DNA of 64,000 nt from an uncultured bacterium (GTDB taxonomy: Bacteria; Armatimonadota; HRBIN16), in NCBI GenBank assembly GCA_964579145.1, contig CAZOGB010000012.1:1866-65865 (forward strand). Reading direction: 5' to 3'. Under the pieces are notes generated by a model. That model made no database searches and had not been told where the DNA came from. It was given only the letters and a program-made list of their open reading frames with translations. The stretch's first letter is position 1, and each line of letters opens with the position of its first letter. The position numbers and the translations under genes were made by a program. Below, piece after piece: positions 7,501 to 42,985 of this stretch.

Positions 7501-7894
7501 GGTGGAGATTTCTACCCGGCTGACCAACCGCTCTTCAGAGACAATGCCGAACGTGGTACTGCGCACGCATCCGCAGTTTCGTCTGTCCGCCGGTCAACCC
7601 GACCTGCGCCTGGTCGCCAGAGGGGGTGACGGAGGCTGGAAAGAGTATCCCCTGCAATCCGAGACCTATCTGAGAGGAACGGAATTACCTGCTGGCAGTT
7701 GGGGCGTGCTTATCCCCAATAGCAACATCGTTATCCTCAACGAGTTTGACCCGGCGCAGGTGCGCCAGTGCTACCTGTATGCCTTCCGCGAGTTCTACAA
7801 TCTGGAGCTCTTCTCGCAGCCGAAGACGCTGGCGCCCGGTGACTCGCTCGAGTTCAAACACCGATACCTCGTGCGCGAGGGAGGGCTTCGCTGA
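4508..7894 (+). CDS. Secreted DUF4838-type glycoside-hydrolase-like protein with a GH20b-like N-terminal domain
   Basis: Signal peptide MHVSRKAWAIIHLLALTLLARVTAQA. GH20-domain-2-like block GRSDPARQRALYTNAEYEPLGSDGFILR...YAVYRLLERMGCRFY. CQCERCKAWYKEHGS zinc-ribbon-like motif typical of DUF4838. Protein is 1128 aa. GTG start preceded by GGGAGGAG. Confidence 0.55.
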   Translation: MHVSRKAWAIIHLLALTLLARVTAQADDLAVRQGEYTARWTETGLQITYRNIPVVTASRLTLFKPGYTGAYFSAANLTARTAQVGVKGNSITAIQSIPDIRATIEHQTTVESDGVTIWFTLRVQRDIEPSPVECALVMFPPEEFAGGMYRLQSLFGQLRPQVLPLEKPQTSAAGTQLIASGVRGVTLIGRQVELTVENLGSIAPSFYDMRSRDFPQPERIYWWLYQWLAGQGEVACGIRLSARPISQQRAQAHASGKVWLVEGGRRMEIGQIFVHEQAHAIEKAVAQELQRYLRELTGREIPLVQGNGEGLPDRGVVYIGRSDPARQRALYTNAEYEPLGSDGFILRLKGGNLLAAGGGYRGTVYAVYRLLERMGCRFYSTELEIVPQRKNAEIRAPLDIVDRPAFEWRAMWGRIYPMTAGLSPGEWEAKVGNSDLPKMMGIPPRGFWHHTMGFLLPADTVPKEYLAEIAGERRITEPAVQQYCLSNPDLQKAMTEAVLKWIESNPDPLYYPVHYGDTGQFCQCERCKAWYKEHGSLTDAVIWFNNQIAQEVARRFPGKFITTLAYWSTRKPPVKERPLPNHLIIFCAISECQARPWSHPINLKLNVIPDLERWIAVHPLGAQGIITFEYPTTYYYIGYPYPALYAFAENLRYYKRLGIRGVYICGLTDGHLVHLYSYVMPRLMWNPDANLQQLIDEFCKAWYGKAWRPMRDYVHRLHESAIQSQSEGVMDCHAGPGQRYFRELFTRDWLDGQIYPLYARAESLAESELIKRRIWREKWGVLFTDLFVNLQVGRDIVPDSSERGYTRQMPSLPDYYRIAELLKVTRAIGRDWTVEPRLRYTLTAITGIEPSRSRWWECPEVQKLIDDPQGAYESAVRAMSDETVGQYIIRLESPYLLADIVPSLGGRIWRLYHKGLRQDIFWRSILQWHLVQNGHQAEHYLNFGGYEEYAGEQFASPGWREKYECTVSEDKRSATLTTNLPNGLQITRMFTLLPDEPAVEISTRLTNRSSETMPNVVLRTHPQFRLSAGQPDLRLVARGGDGGWKEYPLQSETYLRGTELPAGSWGVLIPNSNIVILNEFDPAQVRQCYLYAFREFYNLELFSQPKTLAPGDSLEFKHRYLVREGGLR

Positions 7895-7965
7895 GGGCTA
7901 ACAGGATACTCCCGACCAGAAGATGAATATTACAGCCGAGACCATCACGAAACAGGAGAGGAGTT

Positions 7966-8796
7966 ATGCCTGACCAGCTGATAGCCGGTAACTGGAAGAT
8001 GCACGGCACGGTGGCGTGGTCACTGGCTTTGGTAGAAGAGCTGAAGCATCGCAACCTGGATGCCCTGAACGCCGAGGTGTGCATCTGCCCACCCTTCACC
8101 GCGCTGTATGCGGTGCATCAGGCGCTTCGCGGCACCGAGATTAAACTGGGGGCACAGGATGTATTCTGGAAGGACCAGGGCGCCTACACCAGCCAGATTG
8201 CCCCGCCGATGCTGACCGAGCTGGGTGTGAGCTACGTCATCATCGGTCACTCCGAGACGCGAGGGCGGTTTGGCGTCCCTGAACCCGATTTCACCGATGA
8301 AATCCTGCGTCACTTCGGCGAAAACGACGCCACTGTGAACCTGAAGGTAAAAGCGGCGTTGTTGCATGGGTTGACGCCCATCATCTGCGTCGGCGAGACC
8401 CTTGCTGAACGGCAGGCAGGACAGACCGATGCCGTGATTACCGCTCAGGTGAAGCGCGACCTGCAGGGGCTTGACCCTGCAGAGATTGGCTGTCTGGTGT
8501 TTGCGTACGAGCCGGTGTGGGCGATTGGCACGGGCGAGGTATGCGACGCCCCAGAGGCAAACCGCGTTTGTGCGCTGATTCGACGTATCGCCACTGAGCT
8601 GTGCGGCGAGGAGAACGCCCAGGGGCTTCGCGTGCTGTATGGTGGCTCCGTGAAACCCGACAACGCGCATGACCTGCTTGCACAGCCGCATATCGACGGA
8701 GCGCTGGTGGGCGGGGCGAGCCTGTCGGCGGCGTCGTTTGCGGAGATTGTGTCCCACGCGCACAAGATTGCGAACCATCGCAACAACGGCGCGTAG
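7966..8796 (+). CDS. tpiA: Triosephosphate isomerase
   Basis: AGNWKMH, IIGHSETR, YEPVWAIGTG and YGGSV signature blocks. Confidence 0.95.
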   Translation: MPDQLIAGNWKMHGTVAWSLALVEELKHRNLDALNAEVCICPPFTALYAVHQALRGTEIKLGAQDVFWKDQGAYTSQIAPPMLTELGVSYVIIGHSETRGRFGVPEPDFTDEILRHFGENDATVNLKVKAALLHGLTPIICVGETLAERQAGQTDAVITAQVKRDLQGLDPAEIGCLVFAYEPVWAIGTGEVCDAPEANRVCALIRRIATELCGEENAQGLRVLYGGSVKPDNAHDLLAQPHIDGALVGGASLSAASFAEIVSHAHKIANHRNNGA

Positions 8797-8854: not shown

Positions 8855-8931
<77 letters not shown>

Positions 8932-8945
8932 GCTGTTCCCCCTGG

Positions 8946-9024
8946 TGGCGGCTGTAGCTCAGCTGGTCCAGAGCGCCTGACTGTGGCTCAGGAGGTCGTG
9001 GGTTCGAATCCCATCAGCCGCCCC
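8946..9024 (+). tRNA. tRNA-His (anticodon GTG) with genomically encoded G-1
   Basis: Extra 5' G, then acceptor gcggctg/cagccgc. Anticodon stem cctga/tcagg with loop ctgtggc (anticodon GTG). T-loop ttcgaat. CCA is encoded. Confidence 0.85.
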
Positions 9025-13141: not shown

Positions 13142-13292
13142 TGAATTCGCGCCCGGCGGGAAGAATCCTGCCATAGTGCAGGAACAAACAGGCGGGCTGT
13201 CCACGCAAGGGATTACCCAGTGATGGGTGACAGGCAAAGCGCCGTTATAACTTCAACATTGCCCCTGTGGTCAGCCAGTTTGCTCCCTGCTC

Positions 13293-14609
13293 TCAATGCC
13301 CCGGCACGCTCTGTCCTACCAGCGGCTCCAGCATGATGGTCTCGGTCTCGTCGTCGTAGGCGATGACCTCGCCGTAGCGTCCCCACTCGATGATGGTGTT
13401 CAACTGCTTCTCGGCGTCGGCGGGAGGAAGCTCCAGTTCGATGGCAGCGCGCACCACATCACGCTTCAGGCTCTGGTTCTCCGCCAGGTGCAGCATGTTA
13501 ATCAGCCACTGGAAAATGGGCAACCGTCGGATACGGGTGGAGAAAATCTCCTTGCGCGTCAGGATGCTTGCCTCGCTGAAGGTTTCGCCCAGCGGGGTCA
13601 GCATCACGTCACCCTGCCCAACGCGTACGAACCCCAGCAGCTCCGCCGTGTCAATCAGCCTCAGCACCAGGTCCGAGTCCGCTCCGAAGTCCTCGGTCAG
13701 CTGATAGATGTCGTAGGTAGGCTGAGAGGACTCCGCCAGGTGTTCCAGCAAGCCAACGAGGTCGCTGATTTGAATCTGCGGTAGCCATCGCGTGATGCCC
13801 GGCTTGCCGGGCGCCGTGCCCATCTCCACCGGCTCGGGCTGGGTTTGACCGGCGAGGATGGCATAAATCTGGTCAATCAGCTTCAGGAACTGCGGCGACT
13901 TGCGATGACGCGGCTGAGGCATATCCACGTTGACCTCGGCAATCACCCGCCCAGGCGAAGTGCCCATGATAATCAGGCGGTCTGCCATCTCAGCGGCTTC
14001 CTCAATGTTGTGCGTCACCATCAGGATGGTTTTGGTGGGGATTTTGCCGTCCAGCCACAGCTCCATCAGCTCGCCGCGCAGGGCTTCAGAGCTGAGCACG
14101 TCTAATGCCGAAAAAGGCTCGTCCAGGCAAAGCAGTTCGGGTTCCACCGCCATCGCTCGCGCGAAACCCACCTTCTGGCGCATCCCACCCGACAGCTCAC
14201 GCGGGTAGGCGTTTTCGAATCCGTCCAGCCCCACGCGGTCCAGCAGGTCCAGCGCACGGGCGGTGCGAATCTTGGGCGGAACTCCCCTCGCCTTCAGCGC
14301 AACCTCTACATTTTCCTGCACTGACAGCCACGGGAAAAGGGCAAAGGTCTGAAACACAATACTGGCATGAGGATTCACCCCTCGCAGTTCCTCGCCGCGA
14401 TAACGAATGCGCCCCTCGGTGGGGCGTTGAAGTCCGGTAATCAGGCGCAACAGCGTGCTCTTGCCACACCCGGATGGTCCCAGCAGGCAGACAAACTCCC
14501 CTTCGTTGACGGTCAGGTTGATGTCCTGTACCGCGTAAAAGCGTTTCCTGCCGGTAGCGTATACCTGGCTCACATGCTCCAGTTCCACAAGTATCTTCCC
14601 GTTGTTCAT
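13293..14609 (-). CDS. ABC transporter ATP-binding protein (NitT/TauT-like) with a C-terminal extension of about 180 aa
   Basis: Walker A LLGPSGCGKST, ABC signature LSGGMRQKV, Walker B LLCLDEPFSALD. The extra C-terminal domain has unknown function. Confidence 0.85.
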   Translation of the reverse strand: MNNGKILVELEHVSQVYATGRKRFYAVQDINLTVNEGEFVCLLGPSGCGKSTLLRLITGLQRPTEGRIRYRGEELRGVNPHASIVFQTFALFPWLSVQENVEVALKARGVPPKIRTARALDLLDRVGLDGFENAYPRELSGGMRQKVGFARAMAVEPELLCLDEPFSALDVLSSEALRGELMELWLDGKIPTKTILMVTHNIEEAAEMADRLIIMGTSPGRVIAEVNVDMPQPRHRKSPQFLKLIDQIYAILAGQTQPEPVEMGTAPGKPGITRWLPQIQISDLVGLLEHLAESSQPTYDIYQLTEDFGADSDLVLRLIDTAELLGFVRVGQGDVMLTPLGETFSEASILTRKEIFSTRIRRLPIFQWLINMLHLAENQSLKRDVVRAAIELELPPADAEKQLNTIIEWGRYGEVIAYDDETETIMLEPLVGQSVPGH

Positions 14610-14613
14610 CTCT

Positions 14614-16344
14614 CTACTCCATTCGGTAACGTGATGCGGCGATACGGTACAATCGTCTCCAGAGCAGACGGTTCACAAGCACCACCGTCAGTATCATCGT
14701 TAAGGTTGATGCAAGCAGGAGTGGAAAATCCCCCTGCGCCGTGCTGTGGGCAATCAGGTCGCCCAGTCCCGTCACGCGCAGAGTGCGCCCGCCAAACTCT
14801 ACATATTCCGCCACAATGCTGGCGTTCCACGCTCCACCACTGGCGGTGATCGCGCCCGTAATCAGATACGGGAACAGCGCAGGCAGTATCAGCACTCGCC
14901 ACCTCTGCCAGCGGTTCAACCCCAGCAGTTTGACGGTAAAGCGCAATTCCTGCGGGATAGACATTGTACCCGCGATAACGTTGAACAGCAGATACCACTG
15001 TGTGCCCGTTAGCATCAACAGCACCGCAGCCATGTTCAGCCCGCCGGGCAACTGCAACAACATCAACACGAACACCGGGAACAGCGCGGTAGCAGGAATA
15101 GAGGCTGCAATCTGCACCAGCGGCTGAAAATAGGCGGCTAACCGGGTGTTCATGCCGATATACACCCCCAGCGGCACCGTCCACCCAAAGGCGATAGCCA
15201 GCGCGATGAAGACCCTCAATGCGGTCATCAGCACGCCCTGCAGGATGGCGAACCACTGATCAATGCCTACCTGTGTCAGCAGGTGCAGTGCTCGTAGCGT
15301 GCCGTAAGCCACCAGAGCCAGCATCACCGCGAAGAACAGCTTCCACCCGACGTCCCCGCGCTGGGATTGCTCGTAGAGATGCTCCGCGCGAAACGGCCAG
15401 ACGCGCAAAGTCCACTCATCAAACCGCTCGCCCATGCGCTCCCAAAAGGCGGAAAACCGTTCCGACAGCTTCGACGAGCGCAACACATCGTAGAACCAGG
15501 CGCTGGCGTGCGTCTCCTGCTCTATCATCTCCAGTTTGAACTTCTCACTCCACGCCACCAGCGGGCGCCACACCAGCTGGTCCAGCAAAACAATCACCAG
15601 CACCAGCGTGCCCAATCCCCACAGGATGGCGGGGATATTTCCCTGATGCGATGCCTCGCGCAGATAGGCGCCCAGCCCGGGCAGGCGATAGTCGCGCTCG
15701 CCCACGGTGAAAATCTCCGCTGCCATCAGGAAGAACCAGCCGCCCGCCCAGCTCATCATGCTGTTCCAGATGAGGCCAATGGCGCCGAAGGGCAGTTCCA
15801 GCTTGCGCATCCTCAGCCACCAGTTCAGGCGCAGAATCTCCGCCGCCTCGCGCAGGTCTTTGGGCAGGGTGGTCAGCGACTGGTACCACGAGAAGGTCAT
15901 ATTCCACACCTGGCTGGTGAAGATGAGCACGATAGACGCCAGCTCGGCGGCGATTCGCTCGTGCATAATTGCGCTCAGCCCCAGCAGAACCACTGGCAGA
16001 AACGACAATATCGGCACGCTCTGCAGCACGTCCAGCGTGGGAAGCAGTATCTGTTCCGCTCGCCGACTGCGCGCCGCCGCATAGCCATACACCAGTGTGA
16101 AGATCAGCGACAGCAGGTAAGCCGCCCCCATCCGCATGACGGAACGGAAAGCATAGTAAGGCAGCGCCAGAGGCTCCAACACGATGCTCGGTCCCCGTAC
16201 CGCTTCGGGAGCATGAAATCCAAAATGAACCCCCAGATACAGCAATGCCGTGATGGTCAACAGCACAAAGGCATCGCTCCACCGAAATTCGCGGGTTGTT
16301 TGTTTGAGCTCGTAGATTGGCGCTTTCAGGTAGTGCATCGGCAA
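14614..16344 (-). CDS. ABC transporter permease with two fused transmembrane domains (NitT/TauT family)
   Basis: 576 aa with about 12 hydrophobic helices. Carries two copies of the BPD-transport permease core. Separated by 4 nt from the ATPase gene downstream. Confidence 0.8.
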   Translation of the reverse strand: MPMHYLKAPIYELKQTTREFRWSDAFVLLTITALLYLGVHFGFHAPEAVRGPSIVLEPLALPYYAFRSVMRMGAAYLLSLIFTLVYGYAAARSRRAEQILLPTLDVLQSVPILSFLPVVLLGLSAIMHERIAAELASIVLIFTSQVWNMTFSWYQSLTTLPKDLREAAEILRLNWWLRMRKLELPFGAIGLIWNSMMSWAGGWFFLMAAEIFTVGERDYRLPGLGAYLREASHQGNIPAILWGLGTLVLVIVLLDQLVWRPLVAWSEKFKLEMIEQETHASAWFYDVLRSSKLSERFSAFWERMGERFDEWTLRVWPFRAEHLYEQSQRGDVGWKLFFAVMLALVAYGTLRALHLLTQVGIDQWFAILQGVLMTALRVFIALAIAFGWTVPLGVYIGMNTRLAAYFQPLVQIAASIPATALFPVFVLMLLQLPGGLNMAAVLLMLTGTQWYLLFNVIAGTMSIPQELRFTVKLLGLNRWQRWRVLILPALFPYLITGAITASGGAWNASIVAEYVEFGGRTLRVTGLGDLIAHSTAQGDFPLLLASTLTMILTVVLVNRLLWRRLYRIAASRYRME

Positions 16345-16516
16345 AGATTCCTTTCAAGGTGGAACGGCTTTCTAAAAAGCGGGTACAGTGCCAGATTACT
16401 AGATTATTATACATGGCAGGAAGGGGCAGAGACAAGCAAAATCTTCTTAAACAGGAGCACTACACGAGGCAGGTGCAACACTCGCCTGCTTTCAGGGGTC
16501 ATTGCACAGAGGAAGG

Positions 16517-17887
16517 ATGAAAGCCGCGCTGATCATAACCCTGCTGGTCATCAGCCTTGGCACCGGTTATGCCCTGGCACAACGACCTGCTCGCCTCCTG
16601 CCGAAATGGAAACAGGAGTTCCAGCGTGCCCGGCAGGTGTGGGATAAGGGAGAGGCGGAGCGCGCGTTGATGGTGCTGGAAAAGGCATTTGCTCTGGCGC
16701 CAGACGACACCGCGCGCGCCCAGATTGCCTTCCGCTATGCCGACTGGAGCCGCCAGCTGGGACAATACGACACGGCAAGGCGATGGTACAGCAGGTGCAT
16801 CACCCTGTCGCCGCCGGGTTCCGACCTGATCCGTCGCGCCCGGGAAGGTTTGCGCAGTCTGTCGTCTGCCCGCCCCGTGCCCGTCTATCCCGTGCCGCCC
16901 GCTACCACCGTGCCCCCATGGACATCCGCTCCCGTCGGCGAAGTTCGCATGTTTCCATCGCTGGCCGTGCTGTTTGCGGTGTCCCTGCTGGTGTTGCTGA
17001 TGCTCCTGCAGTGGGCAAGCGGCTGGAGGCGTGAGGCGTTCTTCGCGCAGGTGGTACTCAGCATATTGCTCGGCGGAGCGATTACCATGATGGTTCCCTT
17101 TGGCGTGATGCTGCTGAGCCAGCGGTTTTCGCCCCAGCCCGACGACTGGATAGCGGGAATACTGACCATCGGCAGTATCGTCTGTATGGCGTTCGCTGCG
17201 CGCACCTGGCAACAGGGACAGCTACTGCGTGCCACCCCCCTCACCCGCTTGAGAAGCGCATCGCACGGCTTTTTGAAAGTGCGCGGAGTGGCGGAAGCCG
17301 CATTCGGCGTGCTTACCAGCCAGGTCGGCAACATCTCTGGGATTTACCTGAGCGAGCTTTCCGAGCGTTACGTGCGCCGTACCGAAACCTACTATGACTC
17401 GCAGAGCAAACGCTGGAAGACGCGCACGGTTTACCGATGGGAGACCATCTACAGCTTCACACAGGGCGTAAACTTCCTGCTGGACGACGGCACGGGCAAA
17501 GCCATCGTGGAAGTGGAAGGGGCGGAGTTCTACCCCGAACATGTGGCGCTGTTTTACAACTATCGCCCGGTGCGCTCGTTTCGATGGTTTGCCAGTGTGG
17601 GTGATGTGCGCACCACAATACGATACATCCCGCCGAATGCGACGGTGACCGTTTGGGCGCGATACTATGAACGCGACCTGCCCGGCACCGAACGCGATGA
17701 GATGCGCCTGCAGTACGACCGCTTCCACAAATGCATGGTGGTGCTGGAGGGAAATGAGGGTAAGGTGTACACGACCCGCACGGGAGCAGGGCTTGCGCTG
17801 GCGGTGCTGGGGGTGGTGATGCTTCTGGGAGTGATTTTTATCCTGCTGAACCCGGGCGCCGTTTCGGGGTACATCAACACCTATTGA
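16517..17887 (+). CDS. Membrane protein with an N-terminal TPR-like exported domain and a C-terminal beta-rich GIDE-like domain (LemA-associated)
   Basis: Signal peptide or TM MKAALIITLLVISLGTGYALA, several internal TM helices, and a C-terminal TM. The C-terminal region RTETYYDSQSKRWKTRTVYRWETIY...RYYERD resembles bacterial GIDE-domain proteins that pair with LemA. ATG at 16517 is preceded by GAGGAAGG. Confidence 0.45.
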   Translation: MKAALIITLLVISLGTGYALAQRPARLLPKWKQEFQRARQVWDKGEAERALMVLEKAFALAPDDTARAQIAFRYADWSRQLGQYDTARRWYSRCITLSPPGSDLIRRAREGLRSLSSARPVPVYPVPPATTVPPWTSAPVGEVRMFPSLAVLFAVSLLVLLMLLQWASGWRREAFFAQVVLSILLGGAITMMVPFGVMLLSQRFSPQPDDWIAGILTIGSIVCMAFAARTWQQGQLLRATPLTRLRSASHGFLKVRGVAEAAFGVLTSQVGNISGIYLSELSERYVRRTETYYDSQSKRWKTRTVYRWETIYSFTQGVNFLLDDGTGKAIVEVEGAEFYPEHVALFYNYRPVRSFRWFASVGDVRTTIRYIPPNATVTVWARYYERDLPGTERDEMRLQYDRFHKCMVVLEGNEGKVYTTRTGAGLALAVLGVVMLLGVIFILLNPGAVSGYINTY

Positions 17888-17901
17888 GGAGGTTCAACAT
17901 C

Positions 17902-18465
17902 ATGACAGGCATCTCAACCTTAGCGATTGTGCTGTTCATCATCGGAGGCGTGCTGGTGATATGGGTCATCGCCGCCTACAACAACCTGGTGAACCTGCGC
18001 GGACAGGCTCAGCGGGCATGGGCAAACGTGGACGTAGTGCTCAAACAGCGCTGGGACCTGATCCCCAACCTCGTGGAGACGGTGAAAGGCTATGCCCAGC
18101 ATGAACGGCAGATGCTGGAGCGCATTGCTGAACTGCGTGCGGTGGCACTGGGCGCCAAAGACCGCAAAGAACGCATTCAGGCGGAACAGGAAGCCTCGCG
18201 TCTGCTGGGCAACATCATCGTGTGGGGCGAGAACTATCCCGAGCTGAAGGCGAACGAAAACTTCCTGCATCTCCAGCGCACGCTGGCGGACCTGGAGGAG
18301 CAAATCGCCGACCGCCGCGAGCTGTACAACGAAGCCGCCACGAACTACAACGTGTACCAGAAGACCTTCCCGGCGGTGCTGGTAGCGCAGAGCGTCTGGG
18401 CGGAAGAGATGCCCCTGTTTGAGGCGGCTCCCCAGGAGCGAGAGGTGCCGAAGGTACAGTTTTAG
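17902..18465 (+). CDS. lemA: LemA-family protein
   Basis: AYNNLVNLRGQAQRAWANVDVVLKQRWDLIPNLVETVKGYAQHE is a canonical LemA block, preceded by one N-terminal TM helix. ATG at 17902 has GAGGAGG 9 nt upstream. Confidence 0.85.
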   Translation: MTGISTLAIVLFIIGGVLVIWVIAAYNNLVNLRGQAQRAWANVDVVLKQRWDLIPNLVETVKGYAQHERQMLERIAELRAVALGAKDRKERIQAEQEASRLLGNIIVWGENYPELKANENFLHLQRTLADLEEQIADRRELYNEAATNYNVYQKTFPAVLVAQSVWAEEMPLFEAAPQEREVPKVQF

Positions 18466-18550
18466 AAACGGAGGGCAGGACACGAGTCAGGCAAGCAGGT
18501 GTGCCTGCTGAAGCAAGCTTCAGCACTCCAAAAAGATGTTTTTTAGGACA

Positions 18551-18662
18551 ACCTTGCGATTGGAAATCGCAGGCTACACAGAACAAAACCTGCTGGAGCA
18601 GGTTAGCCTCCACAGGAGGCTTCGCTGTGAGTAGCCCGCAACTTCCAGTTGCAGGGTTGCCT
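18551..18662 (+). repeat. Dispersed structured intergenic repeat, copy A (full length, plus orientation)
   Basis: Shares more than 80% identity with elements at 26169-26232 and 42831-42950 (minus). Conserved hairpins: cttgcgatt-gga-aatcgcagg, agcctcc-aca-ggaggct, cccgcaact-tcc-agttgcaggg. The ends form TIR-like repeats, caaccttgc and gcagggttg. Confidence 0.7.
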
Positions 18663-18865
18663 TCAGCGGTTCAAAGAAGCTGCCGGATGTCTACCCTGTC
18701 CCAATTTTGGTTCTACTTTGTAAAACTGGTATGATTTGCAGGAAAAGACAGCGGCATAGCCGAATGTTCCATTAGCAACCGAACAGGTGGTACGCACCAC
18801 CTATCTTGCTGAGATGCCGGGACGCAGTAAGTAAGGTTGCCGAAAACCTTTGAAGGAGGCTCTTG

Positions 18866-19756
18866 ATGGCACTGACCGACCGGTGTGACATCTTTGGCAG
18901 CGTACATGAGGAAGGCATCAATCGTATTGTCCGCCACCTCATGCGACAGCGCCCTTCCCTGTTCAACTATGGCACGGCGTTCTTCCTGCGAAACCCCAAC
19001 CTGCTGTGCGAGCGCATTCAGGCGGCACCCGAAGTCCTGCGGGCACATGACCCACTGCTGAGCGTACAGGATCCTGTTCCCATACTGGGCACAGCAATCC
19101 CGCTGGGACTGAACTGGTGCCTGCAGTTCACCGACCTGCAGATTGACTTCCACCCCAGCAACGTCTTTCAACTGCCTCGCGAGCTGGGGAATCTGCCCGC
19201 CCAACGATTTGCCCTTCGTATGAGGGGTTGTTTCGGGCTGGACTGCCCCTCGGAGGAGTTCATTCGCGAAATCCTGCCGCAGGTCGAGGCAGAAGAAGTT
19301 GCCCAGCGCGGCAAAGAGGTCTTCGGCACAAAGGAGCGTCAACCAGCTGCCCCCGCGAGGGAACCTATCGTGTTCCCCACCAGGAAACTGCAGTGCCTGT
19401 GCGTGGAGCTGTTTGCCGTACTGCACTTCGAGCGGGGCACAATCCCCGGCAATCCCCAGCAGTGGCTGAAGCTGCGGCTGGATGGTCTGGAGATTGTAGA
19501 CCTCGGTCCCGCTCCGCTGGAGGAGATGGTGGAATGCTACATCAGGGCGGTGCTGAGGCTGGGTATCCTGCCGAGGCTCAGCATGCCCATCGAGGCGATG
19601 GTGCTGAACATCACCGAGCTGATGCGCAAGCAGGGACTGGCAATCGGCGAGACCATCACGCTTCAACCCACGCCTGTGCCCGTCGGTGTGCCCAACAACC
19701 CGGCTGTAGAAGACGACCGGCTGAAGGCGTTTATCAATCTGGTGGTGGAGGTATAA
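18866..19756 (+). CDS. Hypothetical protein, first gene of a three-gene cassette of unknown function
   Basis: 297 aa with no recognisable motif. RBS GAAGGAGG upstream. Followed by the next gene after 3 nt. Confidence 0.7.
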   Translation: MALTDRCDIFGSVHEEGINRIVRHLMRQRPSLFNYGTAFFLRNPNLLCERIQAAPEVLRAHDPLLSVQDPVPILGTAIPLGLNWCLQFTDLQIDFHPSNVFQLPRELGNLPAQRFALRMRGCFGLDCPSEEFIREILPQVEAEEVAQRGKEVFGTKERQPAAPAREPIVFPTRKLQCLCVELFAVLHFERGTIPGNPQQWLKLRLDGLEIVDLGPAPLEEMVECYIRAVLRLGILPRLSMPIEAMVLNITELMRKQGLAIGETITLQPTPVPVGVPNNPAVEDDRLKAFINLVVEV

Positions 19757-19759
19757 CCG

Positions 19760-20677
19760 ATGGCACACTTCACTCTCGCCGTTTCCGAAGGAACCTTCCG
19801 GCGTTCGTTCGACCTGCTGAAGCGCAATCTCCGCTTCTCCAAAGCCGATCAGGCGAGCTTCGGCATTTTCGTGGCAGGCTACGACGTGCGAGCGCATCTG
19901 GAAGGAGGAACGCTGGACCTGCGTGCGGATAACACTATCCGCGTGAAGGAGCTGGATATCCGCTGGGACCGCCTGCGTTTCACGCTGGGCATCAACATCC
20001 CCGAAATCTGCGTTGGAGGCGGATGCATCAACATGCCCTGGCCCATCCCGGACATCTGCCTGCCCAGGGTATGCGTGTTCAGCGGCAACCCGGATATCTC
20101 TATCTCGCCCGACCTGGCAGCCTTCGTGGCACAGGAGGTCAGCTTTACCGGAACGGTGGTTGCCCGTTACTTTGACGCCTCCGTTCCGCTACCCTCACCA
20201 GACCTGTGCGCGCCGATACGCATCGAACCCCTGCCGGACCACAATCAGTGGCACATCCACATCGGCCCGCAAACCATCGACGTCGACCTGTTTGATTTCC
20301 CGGACGTTGTGGGCAACCTGATAGAAAACACCCTCAGCAACGCCATTCGCGCGATAATCCCCGGTGGATTTGTGCGCGACATCATCCTCGCCATCATCGG
20401 AGGAATTGCGGATTTCATCCGGTTCCTGCTCGACATCCCCGATGAGATCGACGAGTGGCTGAGCGACCTGTTTAACGTCAGCTTCGGCTTACTGGACTTT
20501 ATCGGCACGCTGGTGCTGGACTTCTTCAGCACGTGCAACCCGATATACCGCATCGACGACCCATTTGAGCTCTTGCCCGCAAGCAACGGGCTGATTCCGG
20601 TTCGAATCCCACTGCGCAACCTGAGCGTCCGCGTCAACGACGCAGAGATGGTTGCGGAAGTAGATATAGGAGGCTAA
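19760..20677 (+). CDS. Hypothetical protein, second gene of the cassette (Cys/Pro/Ile-rich)
   Basis: 305 aa. CVGGGCINMPWPIPDICLPRVCVFSG cysteine cluster. RBS GGAGG 8 nt upstream. 2-nt gap to the next gene. Confidence 0.7.
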   Translation: MAHFTLAVSEGTFRRSFDLLKRNLRFSKADQASFGIFVAGYDVRAHLEGGTLDLRADNTIRVKELDIRWDRLRFTLGINIPEICVGGGCINMPWPIPDICLPRVCVFSGNPDISISPDLAAFVAQEVSFTGTVVARYFDASVPLPSPDLCAPIRIEPLPDHNQWHIHIGPQTIDVDLFDFPDVVGNLIENTLSNAIRAIIPGGFVRDIILAIIGGIADFIRFLLDIPDEIDEWLSDLFNVSFGLLDFIGTLVLDFFSTCNPIYRIDDPFELLPASNGLIPVRIPLRNLSVRVNDAEMVAEVDIGG

Positions 20678-20679
20678 CC

Positions 20680-21393
20680 ATGACAAGCCAAAAGGCGCTG
20701 TTGAACCGCCCCGTCTTTCGACTGAGGGCATTTGACAGCGGTAACCTGACGGTACTGACCACGCTTATCCATCGTTTCGCCGAAGCGGGTTCCTATGACC
20801 TCTTTGTCCGACGGGGTGAGCGCGTGGTACATCGCGCTACGGTAAACGTGGTGCGCGAGACAGGCGCCCCACATCAGATCGATGTGGATATGGCGGACCT
20901 GGGTTCCGCAGAGAAAGGCTGTGAATGCGGGAAGCGCGAGGGATATACCCTTCGTGAAGGAGGGGTGATGTGCTTCTTCGTATCGAGAGGCAATGCGCGC
21001 TTCAAGGTGTCCGTCCAGCAGATTGGCGCCAAAGAGAAACGAACTCTGCTGGACAGTGCGAACTCCATCCCGGCTGGCGACCTGTTCGCAGTTACCCTGG
21101 TGTTGCCCGGCGCATACCGTGTGGTGAACACCGAAAGCAAAGCGGAGATGACGGTGGAGGTAGAGATGCCGGCGGGACCATACCAGATGGACCAGCCCAC
21201 CATTGTGGAGATTGGGCGCACGGGCAGATTTGGCTCACGCCGCGTTAGCATTATGCTGGGGCAATCGGTGGTGTTTCGCTGCGGGACACAGGCACGCATC
21301 CAGCTGGAGCTGGTAAAACCGCACGACATCATCCAAAAACGCGAGCAGGAAAAAGGACAGTTCACTGTACGCAAGTCCGAGACCAGCGACTAG
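20680..21393 (+). CDS. Hypothetical beta-rich protein, third gene of the cassette
   Basis: 237 aa. RBS AGGAGG upstream. CECGKREG motif. No recognised family. Confidence 0.7.
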   Translation: MTSQKALLNRPVFRLRAFDSGNLTVLTTLIHRFAEAGSYDLFVRRGERVVHRATVNVVRETGAPHQIDVDMADLGSAEKGCECGKREGYTLREGGVMCFFVSRGNARFKVSVQQIGAKEKRTLLDSANSIPAGDLFAVTLVLPGAYRVVNTESKAEMTVEVEMPAGPYQMDQPTIVEIGRTGRFGSRRVSIMLGQSVVFRCGTQARIQLELVKPHDIIQKREQEKGQFTVRKSETSD

Positions 21394-21489
21394 CGCACCC
21401 CCAAGCCTCCTGTACTGCCCCTCTCAACGCCGAGAGGGGCGCTCTCTCAAAAGTTTTTTCGGAAAAATATCTGGAATTGCCCAAAAAGG

Positions 21490-21661
21490 CTTGTTTTGCC
21501 CGGCGTTTATGGTATACTACTATTGTTCGGTGTTCGTTGCACGCAACGGTTCGGTTCCGGGGTCCGTAAGCCTCATGTGAGGAGACCGCGTTCGAGCCTG
21601 CCGGCAGCACCGTAACAGAAAAATCCGGGAGGCGACGCGCTTCCCAGCATGAGGTTAAAAA
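21490..21661 (+). promoter_or_regulatory. Promoter (TTGTTT, 17 bp spacer, TGgTATACT) and structured 5' UTR of the RRM gene with a potential anti-SD pairing
   Basis: Extended -10 tatggTATACT. gcctcatg (21572-21579) is the exact reverse complement of catgaggt (21641-21648), and the latter contains the SD GAGG. Confidence 0.4.
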
Positions 21662-21967
21662 ATGCCAGAAACCACTTCTTTGTTCGTAGGAAACCTGTCC
21701 TACGCCACCACCGCAGAGCAACTGCGTGAGCTGTTCTCCCCGTGGGGTCCCGTGGAGGATGCCCGTGTCGTTGAGGGACGCGGCTTCGGCTTCGTGGACA
21801 TCCCCACCGAGAACATGCAGGCGGCTATCGACGCCACCAACGGTCAGGTGTTCATGGGCAGAACCATCACCGTGAACCAGGCTCGTCCCCGCACCGAGCG
21901 GCGTGAGGGCGGCTTCCGCAGCGACCGCGGCGGCTACGGCTCCGGGCGACGCGACCGACGCTGGTAA
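21662..21967 (+). CDS. RRM-domain RNA-binding protein with a Gly/Arg-rich tail (cyanobacterial Rbp-like)
   Basis: RNP2-like LFVGNLSY and RNP1-like RGFGFVDI. C-terminal RGG/GYG repeats. Confidence 0.85.
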   Translation: MPETTSLFVGNLSYATTAEQLRELFSPWGPVEDARVVEGRGFGFVDIPTENMQAAIDATNGQVFMGRTITVNQARPRTERREGGFRSDRGGYGSGRRDRRW

Positions 21968-24523: not shown

Positions 24524-26161
24524 ATGAGGCGACAACAGATTGGACAGATTCTGCTCGATCTGGGCTACATCACACGGGAACAGTTGGTCGATGCGGTAAT
24601 GGTGCAGAAAAACACCGGCAAACGCATCGGAGACATCCTCCTGCAGCTGGGATATCTGAACGGCGAGCAGCTGGCGGAGGCGCTGGCGATACAGGCTGGG
24701 GTGGAGTTCGTGCCCGTGAAGATTGAGCAGATACAGCCCGAGGCGCTGGCATTGCTGGACCCCACCGTCGCACGTGGACTGCAAGCCCTGCCCCTGTGGA
24801 TTCGCGACGGCAAGCTGTACATCGCGCTGGCAGACATTCACGACACGACCGCCCAGCGCGAACTCGCGCGGCTGGTCAACATGCCGATAGCGGTAGTTTC
24901 TGCGAGCACGGACGCCGTGCAGGCTGGTATCCGCTTCTATTATCCCAAAGATGCGGCTGACTGGCAAAGCGCGGCGCAGGAACCCTGCGTGTACGCCTTC
25001 TTACAGCGACTGTTTGAAATGGCAGGCGGTGACGACGCTCGCCCGTTGCAGATGGAACCGCATGACGCGCTGTACTATCGCGTTTGCCGGCGTACGGGTG
25101 GAGCGATGGATCTGATTGAGACCGTCTCGCGCCCCTTTGCGCGGGTCAGCATCTACGCGCTCAAACGCATGGCAGGTTTCCAGGAGAACGATAGCCCCTA
25201 CGTCTCTGCAACCATCCGCTTCGCGCGACCAGCGGAGGAAACGTCGGTTCGCGTCTCCTGCCTCCAGACCGTTCAGGGCGAGCGGGTTGTGCTGAAGATA
25301 GCGAACAGGCAGATCCCTCAACTCCAGAATTATGAGGTCGTGCTGACTTCGGAAGGGGACAGGCTATTGCAGAAGTGGATACAGGCCCGGCAGGGGTTAA
25401 TTCTGATATCCAGCAACAGCTGGAAGCCGCGCAGTCAGTTCATCCTGCAGGCTATCGACTCGTATGCCCAGCAGGGTTACAGTACACTGGTGCTGACGCG
25501 CTCACCGCTCAACGCACCCGAAGGTGTGTTTGTGGTTCCGCTGGAGTATGAGTCCCCCGGCAGAGCTTTTCAGCAGGTGGTGGTTGCCCTCCAGCAGGAG
25601 CCGGATATTCTGGTGCTAGATGCGCCGGCGGGCTGGGAGCATCTGCAGTTGCTGGCATCCTCGAATAACGTCCACACCTTTATCCTGCTGTCCATACACG
25701 CAGAGAGCGCCGCGGATGCTCTTGCGCAGGTGGCATCCCAGCAAGTGGCACCGGTGCTCTTCGCCGAGGTACTCCGGGGCGTGGTGCATCTCTACAACCT
25801 GCCGCGCCTGTGTGCGCATTGCAAGACCGCCCGCCCCGTCGAAGGTGAAATCGTGGAACGGCTGGGTGTGTCTTCCGAAACGGTATACGATGCCGCCGGC
25901 TGTGCTCAATGTCGGTTCACAGGACATGCTGGAGTAACGACTGTCGCCCAGGTACTGCCGGCGGAACAGCCCCTGCTGGAGGCTCTGCGCCATGGCAGGA
26001 TCTCCGAAGCGGTGCAGGTGCTCAGGCAATCGGGCGAGGCTGTCTTGAGGGAAGCTCTGCGGCAGGCGGTGATGCAGGGGGCAACCTCTGTGGAGTACGC
26101 TGTGGAGACCCTCTCCGCCTCGCAGGGTTCAGACCTGCGCACGTACCTCCGGGCAGCGTGA
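24524..26161 (+). CDS. GspE/PilB-like protein with tandem MshEN c-di-GMP-binding motifs and a degenerate Walker A (probable pseudo-ATPase)
   Basis: Two MshEN-type repeats, IGQILLDLGYITREQLVDAVMVQ and IGDILLQLGYLNGEQLAEALAIQ. The GspE Walker A position reads SNSWKPRSQ instead of GPTGSGKST. The C-terminal tetracysteine CAHC...CAQC typical of GspE is retained. Confidence 0.6.
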   Translation: MRRQQIGQILLDLGYITREQLVDAVMVQKNTGKRIGDILLQLGYLNGEQLAEALAIQAGVEFVPVKIEQIQPEALALLDPTVARGLQALPLWIRDGKLYIALADIHDTTAQRELARLVNMPIAVVSASTDAVQAGIRFYYPKDAADWQSAAQEPCVYAFLQRLFEMAGGDDARPLQMEPHDALYYRVCRRTGGAMDLIETVSRPFARVSIYALKRMAGFQENDSPYVSATIRFARPAEETSVRVSCLQTVQGERVVLKIANRQIPQLQNYEVVLTSEGDRLLQKWIQARQGLILISSNSWKPRSQFILQAIDSYAQQGYSTLVLTRSPLNAPEGVFVVPLEYESPGRAFQQVVVALQQEPDILVLDAPAGWEHLQLLASSNNVHTFILLSIHAESAADALAQVASQQVAPVLFAEVLRGVVHLYNLPRLCAHCKTARPVEGEIVERLGVSSETVYDAAGCAQCRFTGHAGVTTVAQVLPAEQPLLEALRHGRISEAVQVLRQSGEAVLREALRQAVMQGATSVEYAVETLSASQGSDLRTYLRAA

Positions 26162-26168
26162 AGAAAGA

Positions 26169-26272
26169 CAGGTTCAGCCTCCGCAGGAGGCTTTGTCATG
26201 GGTAGCCCGCAACTTTCAGCTGCAGGGATGCCTGCCGACTTGCAACTCGGCGGTTGCCTGCGAACCCGTATT
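26169..26272 (+). repeat. Dispersed structured intergenic repeat, copy B (5'-truncated, with a rearranged 3' tail)
   Basis: caggttcagcctccgcaggaggctttgtcatgggtagcccgcaactttcagctgcagggatgcct aligns to copies A and C. The 3' tail ggttgcctgcgaac resembles an inverted fragment of the element's 5' hairpin. Confidence 0.65.
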
Positions 26273-26450
26273 GTGTTATACTCAAGCTAACACACAGAAG
26301 GTTTAGTGTCAACTGCCTCCCCAGAACACGAACCTACGCTGACTGTGTGCGTTCTAACAGTAAACAAGCTATATAAACTGAGCCAAACTTATGAGCAAAA
26401 CGTAGCTGTTATCCGTGCCAGGACGTCAATAAACTGGAGGAGGGTTGCAC

Positions 26451-27389
26451 ATGAACCGGCGAGAGATGTTTCAATGGTTGGGACTGGCAGGGATGGCGGT
26501 GGTTGCCGGTTGCTCCGGGCGAGGGGCAAGGCAGTCGAAAACGACGCAGAAACCGCTGGATACCGCCAGAGCGGAACACCTGAAGAAGGTGCAGAACATT
26601 GTGGCGATTGCTTCGCAGGGCAGTGTGCGTGAGATGGTGGAGCGCGCTCTGCGCCCGTTGGGTGGCATTGAGAAGTTCGTGCGCCCGGGCGATACCGTGG
26701 TGCTGAAGCCCAACGCCGCGTGGCTCAGAACCCCCGAGCAGGCTGCCAACACCAACCCCGAAGTGGTGGCTGCGGTAATTGACCTGTGCCAGAAAGCCGG
26801 AGCGAAACGCATCCTGATTGTCGAACACACCTGCGATAATCCCGCAACCGTCTGCTTCGAGATGAGCGGTATTCGAAAGGTAGCCGACGCGGCAGGGGCG
26901 GTTATCGTCAACGCCAACGCGGAAGGGATGTATCGCCCCGTCAGCATTCCGGGAGCAAAGGTGCTTGCGCAGACGCAGGTGGTGCGCGACGTGCTGGAGG
27001 CGGACTGCTTTATCAACCTGCCTGTCGCCAAAGACCACAGCGCCACACGGGTCACGCTGGGCTTGAAGAACCTGATGGGCGTGGTGTGGGACCGTCAGGC
27101 GTGGCACGTGCAGGGCGTGCATCAGTGCATCGGGGACTTCGTGCTGGCGGTAAAGCCGCACCTGACCATCATTGATGCCACACGCATTCTGGCAACGAAG
27201 GGTCCCAAAGGTCCGGGTGAGGTCAAACACCTCAACCAGATTATCGCTGGAGTAGACCCGGTGGCAGCCGATGCGTTTGCCACCACCCTGTTCGGTTTGA
27301 TGCCAGACGACATCGGTTACATCATGCATGCTCACAGGCTGGGGGTGGGCGAAGCCCGTCTGAACAGGCTGAACATCACGAGGGTATAG
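26451..27389 (+). CDS. DUF362-family protein, exported lipoprotein with a Tat-like signal
   Basis: N-terminus MNRREMFQWLGLAGMAVVAGCSG has a Tat-like RR motif plus a VAGC lipobox. VLKPN and KDHS blocks are shared with the paralog at 29013. ATG at 26451 is preceded by GGAGGAGG. Confidence 0.55.
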   Translation: MNRREMFQWLGLAGMAVVAGCSGRGARQSKTTQKPLDTARAEHLKKVQNIVAIASQGSVREMVERALRPLGGIEKFVRPGDTVVLKPNAAWLRTPEQAANTNPEVVAAVIDLCQKAGAKRILIVEHTCDNPATVCFEMSGIRKVADAAGAVIVNANAEGMYRPVSIPGAKVLAQTQVVRDVLEADCFINLPVAKDHSATRVTLGLKNLMGVVWDRQAWHVQGVHQCIGDFVLAVKPHLTIIDATRILATKGPKGPGEVKHLNQIIAGVDPVAADAFATTLFGLMPDDIGYIMHAHRLGVGEARLNRLNITRV

Positions 27390-41201: not shown

Positions 41202-41687
41202 TCAAGGACATCCCCATTTTCGCCGAAGTTTGCCAACCTCATCAGATGGAAAGCGTGCTCCACCTGCTAACATATCTGCAACGGCGTTACAGGCATCGTC
41301 TGTTGCCAGAATGTTGCTCTGGACGAATTGCTCCAACAGCCACAGCGTACCATGCACCGTCACCCGTTCAGCGGCAGCTGCCCGTCGCAGAGCAGCGTCG
41401 TCAGATAGTAGTATGTAGCCTCTTTCTCGCGCGAGGTACAGAGCTGACAGGTCGACGGCGTCCGCTCTAGGGTAAGTAATGCCCAGTGATTCAGTCTGCA
41501 TGACCTCTGTTCCAGTGAGCGAGACGATTTGCACCCCGTGCGATGCGAGGAAAGATAAGGGGATGGTGCGCAATTCTGCTATGACCAAATCTGTGGAGTA
41601 TAAAAGCCAGCCTGTCTGCACAAAGGTAGTTAACAGTCCAGCCTCATGCAAGTTGATCCAGACTGAGCTGTCCACGACGAAGACCAA
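41202..41687 (-). CDS. PIN-domain protein (putative ribonuclease, VapC-like)
   Basis: N-terminal VVDSSVWI acidic PIN motif and a later D residue block (LLSDDAAL). TTG start. Confidence 0.5.
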   Translation of the reverse strand: MVFVVDSSVWINLHEAGLLTTFVQTGWLLYSTDLVIAELRTIPLSFLASHGVQIVSLTGTEVMQTESLGITYPRADAVDLSALYLARERGYILLSDDAALRRAAAAERVTVHGTLWLLEQFVQSNILATDDACNAVADMLAGGARFPSDEVGKLRRKWGCP

Positions 41688-42753
41688 TTTCTAATCCCCC
41701 GTGAGTTTCGCGAACCCGGTGCTCGAACACGTCAAGAGGCTGTGCCAGCAGATACTCCGCCCGTCTCTGAGAGATTATCCCCTCTCCGTACAGACGGACA
41801 ACCATCCTATGAAATCGTTGAGGTTCTTCGGCTGGATAGGAATCGCCAGGTTCCTGAAGATGCCAGCCACGTTTGCGGAAGAGGCGAAACATCTCCTGTG
41901 CCGTGCTCTCGTGGATGATTTGTAGCTCGCACGCGCGTTTCACCCACGCAAGCATACTCAAGCCGAACTGGTGTTTGAGCAGGTGGAGCTCATAAAGGCT
42001 CAGGTGTTTGCGCGATAAGCCCAGCGCCTCGCGCGCGGTAGGTTCAGGAACAAGAAATGCAGCCGCAAAGCGATGCGCCATACGCTCTGCATCCAGTCCC
42101 TCTGGCACTTCACACAGTAGATGAAACAGCTCATGCGACAGGGTAAACCGCTGTCGGTCTCCCGGTAGTCCTTCCCTGACGGCAATAGCGGGCAAAAGGC
42201 AGCTCGCGCGATCATCGGCTCTTATCCAGAAGGCGGCGCCGTCGAAGTCACCAGCGTCCACCGGCACAACGCTTATCAAAACGCCTTTTTCCTCGAACAG
42301 GGCGATGAGGTTCGGGATGGCATCCATTCCAAGATCCCACACTTCGCGCAACTGGACGGCTGCCTGCTCCACTTCCTCGATAGTATGAATCCGCCGGGGG
42401 AAACCTCCCGGGAACTGCCAGATAAACGAGGAGCCGCTGATCTGTTGAACCTGCAGAACACGACCAGCCCAATCGCACAGGTACGCTTCTACCGATTGCT
42501 GGTGAGCACGAGACAAACCGCTTCGCTTGCGATAAGCAGGTCTCACCTCCTTGATGGATACGCCGCGCGTAAAGAAGAACTCCAGCGGTTTTTCGACCGC
42601 CAGAGCGATGCGAATCAGCACCTGTGAACCTGGCACGTCTTCGCCACGCTCGTAATTGGAGATAGCCTGTGCGCTGACCCCAACACGACGTGCCAGCTCC
42701 CGCATGCTCCATCCTTTCAGTTTCCGCGCGACTCGTATCCGCTCGCCTATCAT
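41644..42753 (-). CDS. XRE-family HTH domain fused to an ImmA/IrrE-type zinc metallopeptidase
   Basis: HTH block IRVARKLKGWSMRELARRVGVSAQAISNYERGE. HExxH motif SHELFHLL. Start ATG 42753 is preceded by GGGGAGG. Confidence 0.75.
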   Translation of the reverse strand: MIGERIRVARKLKGWSMRELARRVGVSAQAISNYERGEDVPGSQVLIRIALAVEKPLEFFFTRGVSIKEVRPAYRKRSGLSRAHQQSVEAYLCDWAGRVLQVQQISGSSFIWQFPGGFPRRIHTIEEVEQAAVQLREVWDLGMDAIPNLIALFEEKGVLISVVPVDAGDFDGAAFWIRADDRASCLLPAIAVREGLPGDRQRFTLSHELFHLLCEVPEGLDAERMAHRFAAAFLVPEPTAREALGLSRKHLSLYELHLLKHQFGLSMLAWVKRACELQIIHESTAQEMFRLFRKRGWHLQEPGDSYPAEEPQRFHRMVVRLYGEGIISQRRAEYLLAQPLDVFEHRVRETHGGLEIGLRRGQLSLDQLA

Positions 42754-42830
42754 CTCTGCCTCCCCACTTGACATTATGGCTAAGTACATGAGTTTTGTCA
42801 AGTGCATGTTGCTGAGGCTTCAGTTGGATA

Positions 42831-42950
42831 AGGCAACCCTGCAACTGGAAGTTGCGGGCTACCCAAAACAAAGCCTCCTGCGGAGGCTCCAACCTGCGTC
42901 AGCAGGTTTCGTTCGGTGTTGCCTGCGACTTCCAGCCGCAAGGACAGAAC
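42831..42950 (-). repeat. Dispersed structured intergenic repeat, copy C (full length, minus orientation)
   Basis: The reverse complement reads ccttgcggctggaagtcgcagg...agcctccgcaggaggct...gggtagcccgcaacttccagttgcagggttgcct. Hairpin 1 carries compensatory changes relative to copy A. Confidence 0.7.
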
Positions 42951-42985
42951 AAGCAGTGCCCGGTGAAGTCTTACCAGTGCCAGAG

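Follow-up and report, generated by a model that had tools for sequence, protein, structure and literature searches.

REP/BIME repeats were first described in E. coli, and REPs were reportedly defined together with RAYTs by Nunvar et al. in 2010. In E. coli, RAYT binds the GTAG tag and the hairpin of a REP; it needs the tag for this binding, and it cannot cut at CT dinucleotides or carry out strand transfer unless tag and hairpin are both present (PMC3479197). The tag defines the GTAG REP superfamily of Di Nocera, De Gregorio and Rocco (2013, PMC3733652), whose repeats are placed in that survey in Proteobacteria, Cyanobacteria, Chloroflexi and the PVC group; Armatimonadota are not listed there, and no report of a REP, REPIN or RAYT in Armatimonadota was found in the literature searched.

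The elements described here lie in the window, the whole 64-kb stretch of Armatimonadota DNA that was analysed. We consider it likely that they form a lineage-restricted family of GTAG-tagged REPs with a BIME/REPIN-like organisation, presumably mobilised by a RAYT. They show every feature by which GTAG REPs are defined at the level of sequence: the palindrome, the tag, the copy number, the extragenic location, the grouping into dimers and clusters, and complementary stem changes that distinguish sub-families. An earlier note on this DNA had left open whether they were a new repeat of MITE/REP type or structured RNAs acting in cis; the REP part of that reading is upheld, the MITE part is not, and the structured RNA is weakened.

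Anatomy of the repeat unit

The basic REP consists of GTAG followed by CCYGCRAYTTCCARTYGCARGG, a 22-nt palindrome with an 8-bp stem, one bulged A and a TTCCA loop. Conserved sequence of about 10 bases (TTYGTYNTGN) stands in front of it, as does a small hairpin rich in GC. Two types, the H1-type or left REP (CCTGCGAYTTCCARTCGCAAGG) and the H3-type or right REP (CCCGCAACTTCCAGTTGCAGGG), are always paired tail to tail with their GTAG tags facing inward. The resulting unit of about 110 nt has the order H1, M2, optional M3, optional M4 and H3, where M2 is AACCTGC-N4-GCAGGTT, M3 is GCTGAAGC-N2-3-GCTTCAGC and M4 is AGCCTCC-N3-GGAGGCT. Among 142 REPs (from the loci of the related genome Ch118, locus L009 and the window) the tag is GTAG in 92/142 and GTTG in 26/142. 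The "TIR-like ends" of the earlier note are two inverted copies of one GTAG-footed 22-nt palindrome; their MITE reading is not supported, as target-site duplications are lacking and half-units and head-to-head arrays occur.

Conserved flanks continue outside the unit. Left of H1 the flank is YTTTATTCTGY or GGGAGAGKGTGY (e.g. window 42944-42953), and right of H3 it is DTGCCTCC(C) (e.g. window 18657-18664). Strings within these flanks (CCTCC/GGAGG) resemble anti-SD/SD sequences, and no start codon in consistent register with them was found. A small ORF starting from the ATG in GGAGGCTTTGTCATGGGTAG was considered and dropped, as about half of the copies lack this ATG; the NTG at this position is conserved in the other REP type too, which also counts against an ORF. 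A CRISPR-like array was rejected since the "spacers" are themselves conserved modules.

Repeats in the window

Three similar intergenic copies are present where they had been placed, as a 32-nt core (GTAGCCCGCAACTTCCAGTTGCAGGGTTGCCT) occurs with at most three mismatches at 18631-18662 (+), 26202-26233 (+) and 42831-42862 (-), compared with 0.00 matches in shuffled sequence. Blastn found no fourth copy in the 64-kb window. Copy A (18552-18663, plus strand) and copy C (42830-42943, minus strand) are both 1-2-4-5 units and share 86.8% identity over 114 nt (blastn). Copy B (26176-26233) has only the 3' half, 58 nt with 91.4% identity to C and 84.5% to A (blastn).

The cluster of copy A starts earlier than first given, at 18506, with an M3 module, the palindrome TGCTGAAGC-AA-GCTTCAGC at 18506-18524 (regex module scan and sequence), and its module order is 3-1-2-4-5. 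The left REP, of H1 type and on the minus strand, has its palindrome at 18552-18573, without mismatch to CCTGCGATTTCCAATCGCAAGG, and its tag at 18574-18577 as CTAC, the complement of the GTAG on that strand. Next comes the M2 hairpin AACCTGC-TGGA-GCAGGTT at 18587-18604 (sequence and fold), a fourth hairpin that was missed when three were described, all of which fold well. On the minus strand M2 is followed by a T-rich tract and is terminator-like. The M4 hairpin AGCCTCC-ACA-GGAGGCT occupies 18605-18621 (sequence and fold), and the right REP, of H3 type, lies at 18631-18664 on the plus strand (core and REP scans), with GTAG at 18631-18634, the palindrome at 18635-18656 and the conserved flank TTGCCTTC on its 3' side.

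Copy B has, at 26170-26192 on the plus strand (sequence and blastn), what is left of the 3' part of M2 (CAGGTT) and then the M4 hairpin (26176-26192), and it contains a single H3-type REP with GTAG at 26202-26205 and the palindrome at 26206-26227 (plus strand; core and REP scans). It had been delimited as 26169-26272 and is homologous to the other copies as far as 26233, but beyond this point only an 11-nt REP remnant is present at 26253-26263 (+), GTTG+CCTGCGA, which corresponds to the tag and the first 7 nt of an H1-type palindrome. Both the H3 REP and the 11-nt remnant are also found at the orthologous site of a close relative, GCA_037478795.1 (L107). Copy B is a right half-unit (M4, GTAG, H3) and not a truncated transposon. 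A promoter-like sequence, TTGCCT-17-TATACT with an extended TG, is located at 26254-26282 (+) upstream of a DUF362 gene, and its -35 hexamer falls within the REP remnant GGTTGCCTGCGA. To judge from this one site, -35-like hexamers may come from REP ends.

The whole of copy C reads on the minus strand. Its H1-type left REP has GTTG at 42918-42921 and the palindrome at 42922-42943 (plus strand; sequence and REP scan), its M2 hairpin, AACCTGC-TGAC-GCAGGTT in minus-strand reading, is at 42891-42908 (sequence and fold), and its M4 hairpin AGCCTCC-GCA-GGAGGCT is at 42872-42888 (sequence). On the minus strand M4 is followed by TTTGTTTTGGG and is terminator-like. The H3-type right REP has GTAG at 42859-42862 and the palindrome at 42837-42858 (minus strand; core and REP scans). 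Copy C sits between two genes of the region 41644-43921 (-), where a gene for a XerC/D-like tyrosine recombinase (Phage_integrase and SAM-like domains) is directly upstream of an HTH_3 and Peptidase_M78 (IrrE-like) gene. Just downstream of copy C is a near-consensus promoter-like sequence, TTGACA-17-CATAAT, at 42801-42773 (-).

Family size and array organisation

When one genome per species was scanned with the exact 23-nt H3 pattern, 47 exact matches came from one MAG, that of Chthonomonadia bacterium Ch118, where they fall into 40 loci, and one further match came from MAG CAZQPV01, which makes 41 genome loci. Scanning metagenomes with a general REP pattern gave 50 loci, all in the ENA assemblies FMJZ01 and FMSI01; the majority match Ch118 contigs at 100% identity, and some are variants with 90-98% identity. 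Viral contigs contained no match to the exact REP pattern, and plasmid records gave none in a blastn search with cluster A. The 306.5 kb of Ch118 loci contain at least 135 REPs, and the expectation of tens to hundreds of copies genome-wide, drawn from three copies in the window, is borne out in this related genome.

The dimers among 142 REPs are arranged tail to tail (46), head to head (35) or head to tail (13), a distribution of the kind usual for REPs. Tail-to-tail spacers are mostly 61-74 or 91-103 nt, and isolated clusters are tail-to-tail dimers. Head-to-head linkers of 14-17 or 22-26 nt, the longer of which is the left-of-H1 flank joined to the right-of-H3 flank, chain units into arrays. 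The arrays contain from one to about four units in the strict cyclic order 1-2-(3)-(4)-5, nearly always in uniform orientation. Module M3 is more abundant than the REPs, with about 105 matches in the first 41 loci, is present at 15765-15784 of L107 as well, and also occurs alone; its stem reaches 14 bp as TGGAGTGCTGAAGC...GCTTCAGCACTCCA.

Many short-read contigs of this lineage start or end within REPs, among them those of L051, L108, numerous FMJZ01 loci and two Logan contigs of the window's own organism, L094 and L095 (SRR11582145/SRR11582147). L094 starts at the position of window 18634, within the H3 REP of copy A, and contig FMJZ01010211, which is 89.8% identical to window 13290-18594, ends inside the orthologue of the same copy. 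REPs fragment short-read assemblies, and copy counts from MAGs are therefore underestimates. The REPs of this lineage should be masked before its intergenic hairpins are read as regulatory RNAs.

Covariation in the REP stem

The minimum-free-energy folds of copies A and C have -66.1 kcal/mol (z = -7.0) and -64.8 kcal/mol (z = -5.1), respectively, and the opposite strands of both fold just as well. In the predicted minimum-free-energy structure, hairpins 1 and 3 of the earlier note pair with each other in one long stem, because both are inverted copies of one palindrome. The local hairpins can be told from this long stem by the way in which the pairs vary. In 150 distinct REPs, 96.4% of the cells of the eight-pair stem are paired, compared with only 19-42% when the stem is slid along the alignment as a control. 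Three of the eight pairs switch by double substitution (UA 87/CG 52, GC 86/AU 54 and CG 86/UA 55), and the cells with a double change number 162, compared with 67.5 +/- 5.1 for shuffled alignments, none of which (0/500) reached 162. The compensatory change reported for hairpin 1 is correct (T-A in copy A and C-G in copy C, together with A-T to G.T) and recurs throughout the family as the last of these switches.

These compensatory changes set H1 apart from H3, and one of them varies within H1 too. Each switch keeps the local REP hairpin paired, but in the long H1:H3 stem it introduces wobble pairs when one strand is folded and A-C mismatches when the other is. It follows that the local hairpin is the conserved structure and that the dimers are heterodimers. 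The intermediates number about 29 G.T and 28 A.C, a symmetry that favours neither strand. Modules M3 and M4 are conserved and show no covariation.

Gene context and strand preference

None of the 40 non-redundant clusters lies inside a called gene (0/40), the calls being those of a home-made, simple codon-bias caller of limited accuracy. The clusters are found between tandem (27), divergent (11) and convergent (2) genes, and the background of all intergenic regions comprises 186 tandem, 40 divergent and 39 convergent. The longest string shared by the two flanks of a cluster averages 3.67, compared with 3.56 in mismatched flank pairs, and this gives no sign of a target-site duplication. In the whole window, Rfam reported only two tRNAs at gathering thresholds, and at E <= 10 its best match in the region of copy A had E = 0.5, well below threshold; it has no match to the element. 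Two adjacent tRNA genes are located at window 8855-8928 and 8948-9022 (+).

Were the units cis-acting structured RNAs, they would be transcribed with a neighbouring gene and serve as terminators, mRNA-stabilising 3' structures or protein-binding RNAs, and selection would act on the RNA fold. We regard this as unlikely. It is in keeping with the strong fold (z of -5 to -7), the compensatory changes in the REP stem and the GGA presented by REP loops on one strand, and in the window all three copies are just 3' of a co-oriented gene, the co-orientation having been pointed out in the earlier note. The intergenic location holds for the family at large but the co-orientation does not: among the 27 clusters between tandem genes, 11 are co-oriented and 16 anti-oriented, which amounts to no orientation rule, and the 11/40 clusters between divergent genes are a further difficulty for a structure transcribed with its neighbour. 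M4 with its T-rich tract, and M2 on the other strand, score as terminator-like, but they do so inconsistently across copies and T-tracts are poor in many. The units do not belong to the class of intrinsic terminators, having a T-rich tail in some copies only and a random orientation. The equal folding of both strands, the symmetric wobble and A-C intermediates, covariation that is confined to the REP stems and not seen in M3 or M4, module content and unit number that vary freely even at orthologous sites, and Rfam without a match also speak against an RNA. It is plausible that effects on neighbouring transcripts, through 3' hairpins or weak convergent terminator-like hairpins, are by-products and not the reason for the family. 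The lack of an orientation rule, of G-U/A-C asymmetry, of target-site duplication and of an Rfam match together argues for a repeat that acts at the DNA level, and neither for a strand-specific RNA nor for a classical MITE.

Orthologous sites and array remodelling

The MutS2 encoded by L107 is 96% identical to that of the window and the two are collinear around mutS2, which allows single sites to be compared. At site A the module order is 3-1-2-3-4-5 in L107 and 3-1-2-4-5 in the window, and the intergenic alignment is 90% identical. It contains a single clean difference of 38 nt, which is exactly one M3 bounded by the direct repeat AGGTTAG. Across the family, filled sites read AGGTTA[M3]AGGTC|AGCCTCC and empty sites AGGTT(N0-3)AGCCTCC. 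From these alignments, M3 at site A may be a very small insertion in its own right that duplicated 5-7 nt of its target, or the difference may have arisen by deletion between short repeats. At site B (window 26130-26470, L107 7730-8220) the H3 REP and the downstream DNA are common to both and the upstream modules are entirely different. Site B shows that a divergence of about 10% is enough for copies to be reshaped, through recombination or through replacement.

Relatives with 82-85% MutS2 identity, which include contigs of 0.9 and 3.25 Mb, have no module in the 17-22 kb around mutS2 that was examined. The absence of modules near mutS2 in these more distant relatives, together with the differing orthologous sites, points to a family that looks fast-remodelled and confined to a narrow clade, with intergenic DNA about 90% identical, and that also looks young. 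In one of the relatives (L111, DAINBI010000017, with 85% MutS2 identity), 7526-8693 corresponds to window 18466-21967, and three genes of unknown function (window 18863-21393), which lie between the genes for LemA and an RRM protein in the window, are absent. The remaining LemA/RRM intergenic region of L111 contains no repeat.

A further reading is a self-assembling mosaic that is independent of RAYT, in which separately inserting hairpin modules (REP half-units, and M3 with its apparent target duplication of 5-7 nt) would be moved by another enzyme, every module having its fixed insertion site within a different one. We hold this to be unlikely. If true, such a mosaic would mean that miniature elements nest in a way for which REPs and BIMEs offer no described example. 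In a weaker variant, arrays would be retained because transcripts of either strand present GGA-loop hairpins or convergent terminators.

Proposed mobilisation

The GTAG-tagged REP reading carries with it a mechanism. REPs would act as single-stranded DNA hairpins recognised, through the hairpin and the GTAG guide, by a RAYT-type HUH/Y1 transposase, which would cleave and rejoin them, and dimers could spread and be reshuffled in this way. Arrays would grow and shrink by recombination. By analogy, the mechanism here is most likely that of E. coli, as the RAYT of E. coli needs the same GTAG tag and hairpin. Against transposition, the differences between orthologous sites could all stem from recombination or deletion.

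A RAYT gene usually has its own REPs on either side, and its absence from REP-centred DNA is for this reason mildly unexpected. In the window and about 0.8 Mb of sampled REP-centred DNA, which together gave 6891 ORFs, no RAYT/IS200-like gene was found, and the best E-value of 1 is noise. The search used E. coli RayT with phmmer, an enterobacterial HMM, a motif search and a multi-phylum HMM. The set of E. coli RayT homologues was enterobacterial only, with at least 65% identity, and of little use as a profile. The multi-phylum HMM was built from plasmid-borne RAYT-like genes identified by tblastn (from E. coli, Pseudomonas, Chromobacterium, two cyanobacteria, two Chloroflexota and two Bacteroidota) and recovered its own members at E-values of 1e-35 to 1e-77. 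Weak RAYT candidates proved to be unrelated proteins in a Pfam scan, and the ORFs between REP clusters 0.8 kb apart (L010 and L025) are not transposases. No larger element bounded by REPs was noticed in the fetched loci, where the transposase search was for RAYT only.

The missing RAYT in the 0.8 Mb of REP-centred DNA would be expected if the repeats were DNA elements maintained by the host, serving as sites for nucleoid or topology proteins or as gene insulators and spread by recombination only, without a dedicated transposase. Binding of gyrase or IHF to BIMEs has been proposed, the linkers and module grammar are conserved here, and clusters are kept at the same sites in a relative with about 90% identical intergenic DNA. 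Recombination alone, however, does not account for dispersal to more than 45 unrelated intergenic sites, and the absence of modules near mutS2 (17-22 kb, at a MutS2 identity of 82-85%) is easier to reconcile with a recent selfish expansion than with a host function that is conserved. The only known role of the GTAG tag is, moreover, that of a RAYT guide (PMC3479197), and we think host maintenance improbable. A classical MITE, a deletion derivative of an IS with a DDE transposase that moves by cut-and-paste through its terminal inverted repeats, is very improbable in spite of the dispersed, intergenic units of about 110 nt and their imperfect terminal inverted repeats of about 17-22 nt, because target-site duplications are lacking, each "TIR" is a complete GTAG-tagged palindrome that is also found alone (copy B), head-to-head and tail-to-tail arrays have conserved linkers, and in the 0.8 Mb or so of REP-centred DNA no parent element bounded by these ends was noticed.

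Comparison with known systems

The match to an already described family holds at the level of the GTAG REP superfamily but not at that of sequence, to judge from the five supplementary text files of PMC3733652, which contain no string of the Armatimonadota REP. According to PMC3733652, superfamily members have stems of 6-13 bp (8 bp here) with an unpaired GTAG (or GTWG) at one stem end, occur extragenically in high copy number, and divide into sub-families by complementary stem changes. They also form tail-to-tail or head-to-head dimers and clusters with spacers of 20-100 bp, with possible small stem-loops at the spacer ends, and all of this is paralleled by the family described here. The differences are that the tail-to-tail spacer is unusually conserved and modular, that no REPtron (a RAYT flanked by REPs) was found in the REP-centred DNA searched, and that the repeats are somewhat commoner between divergent genes (11/40) and rarer between convergent ones (2/40), whereas published REPs favour unidirectional and convergent contexts (PMC3733652).

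The organisation is closest to that of two better-known dimeric systems. The BIMEs of E. coli are mosaics of Y and Z REPs, and the arrays described here resemble them: REPs with one or the other of two stems follow each other in alternating orientation, a long conserved linker takes turns with a short one, and the whole is iterated in tandem a variable number of times; the dimers are always heterodimers, as in Enterobacteriaceae (PMC3733652). The sequences are unrelated to those of BIMEs, however, and the long linker here holds two to three extra hairpin modules. As in the REPINs of Pseudomonas fluorescens (Bertels and Rainey 2011, PMC3116915), an inverted pair of REPs with its spacer can form a single long hairpin, nothing smaller than the doublet is seen dispersed by itself, and singlets such as copy B look like remnants. 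In contrast to REPINs, no RAYT was found here, and the compensatory changes keep the REP hairpins but put wobbles or mismatches in the stem of the doublet.

The GTAG-23 repeats of Thermomicrobium roseum, as described in PMC3733652, are clustered REPs accompanied by a second, more abundant family of small target palindromes, a position taken here by M3. M3 differs from that palindrome in sequence, lies inside the dimer spacer as well as at array ends, and shows an apparent direct repeat of 5-7 nt at its junctions. The spacer is unusually modular, and the M3 nested in it may be a separate tiny insertion. The family is well suited to following, in nature, the assembly and remodelling of REP arrays and to tracing the enzyme responsible, and it extends GTAG-tagged repeats of the REP/BIME type, a known kind of repeat, to the Armatimonadota, a phylum for which the literature searched gave no report of it.
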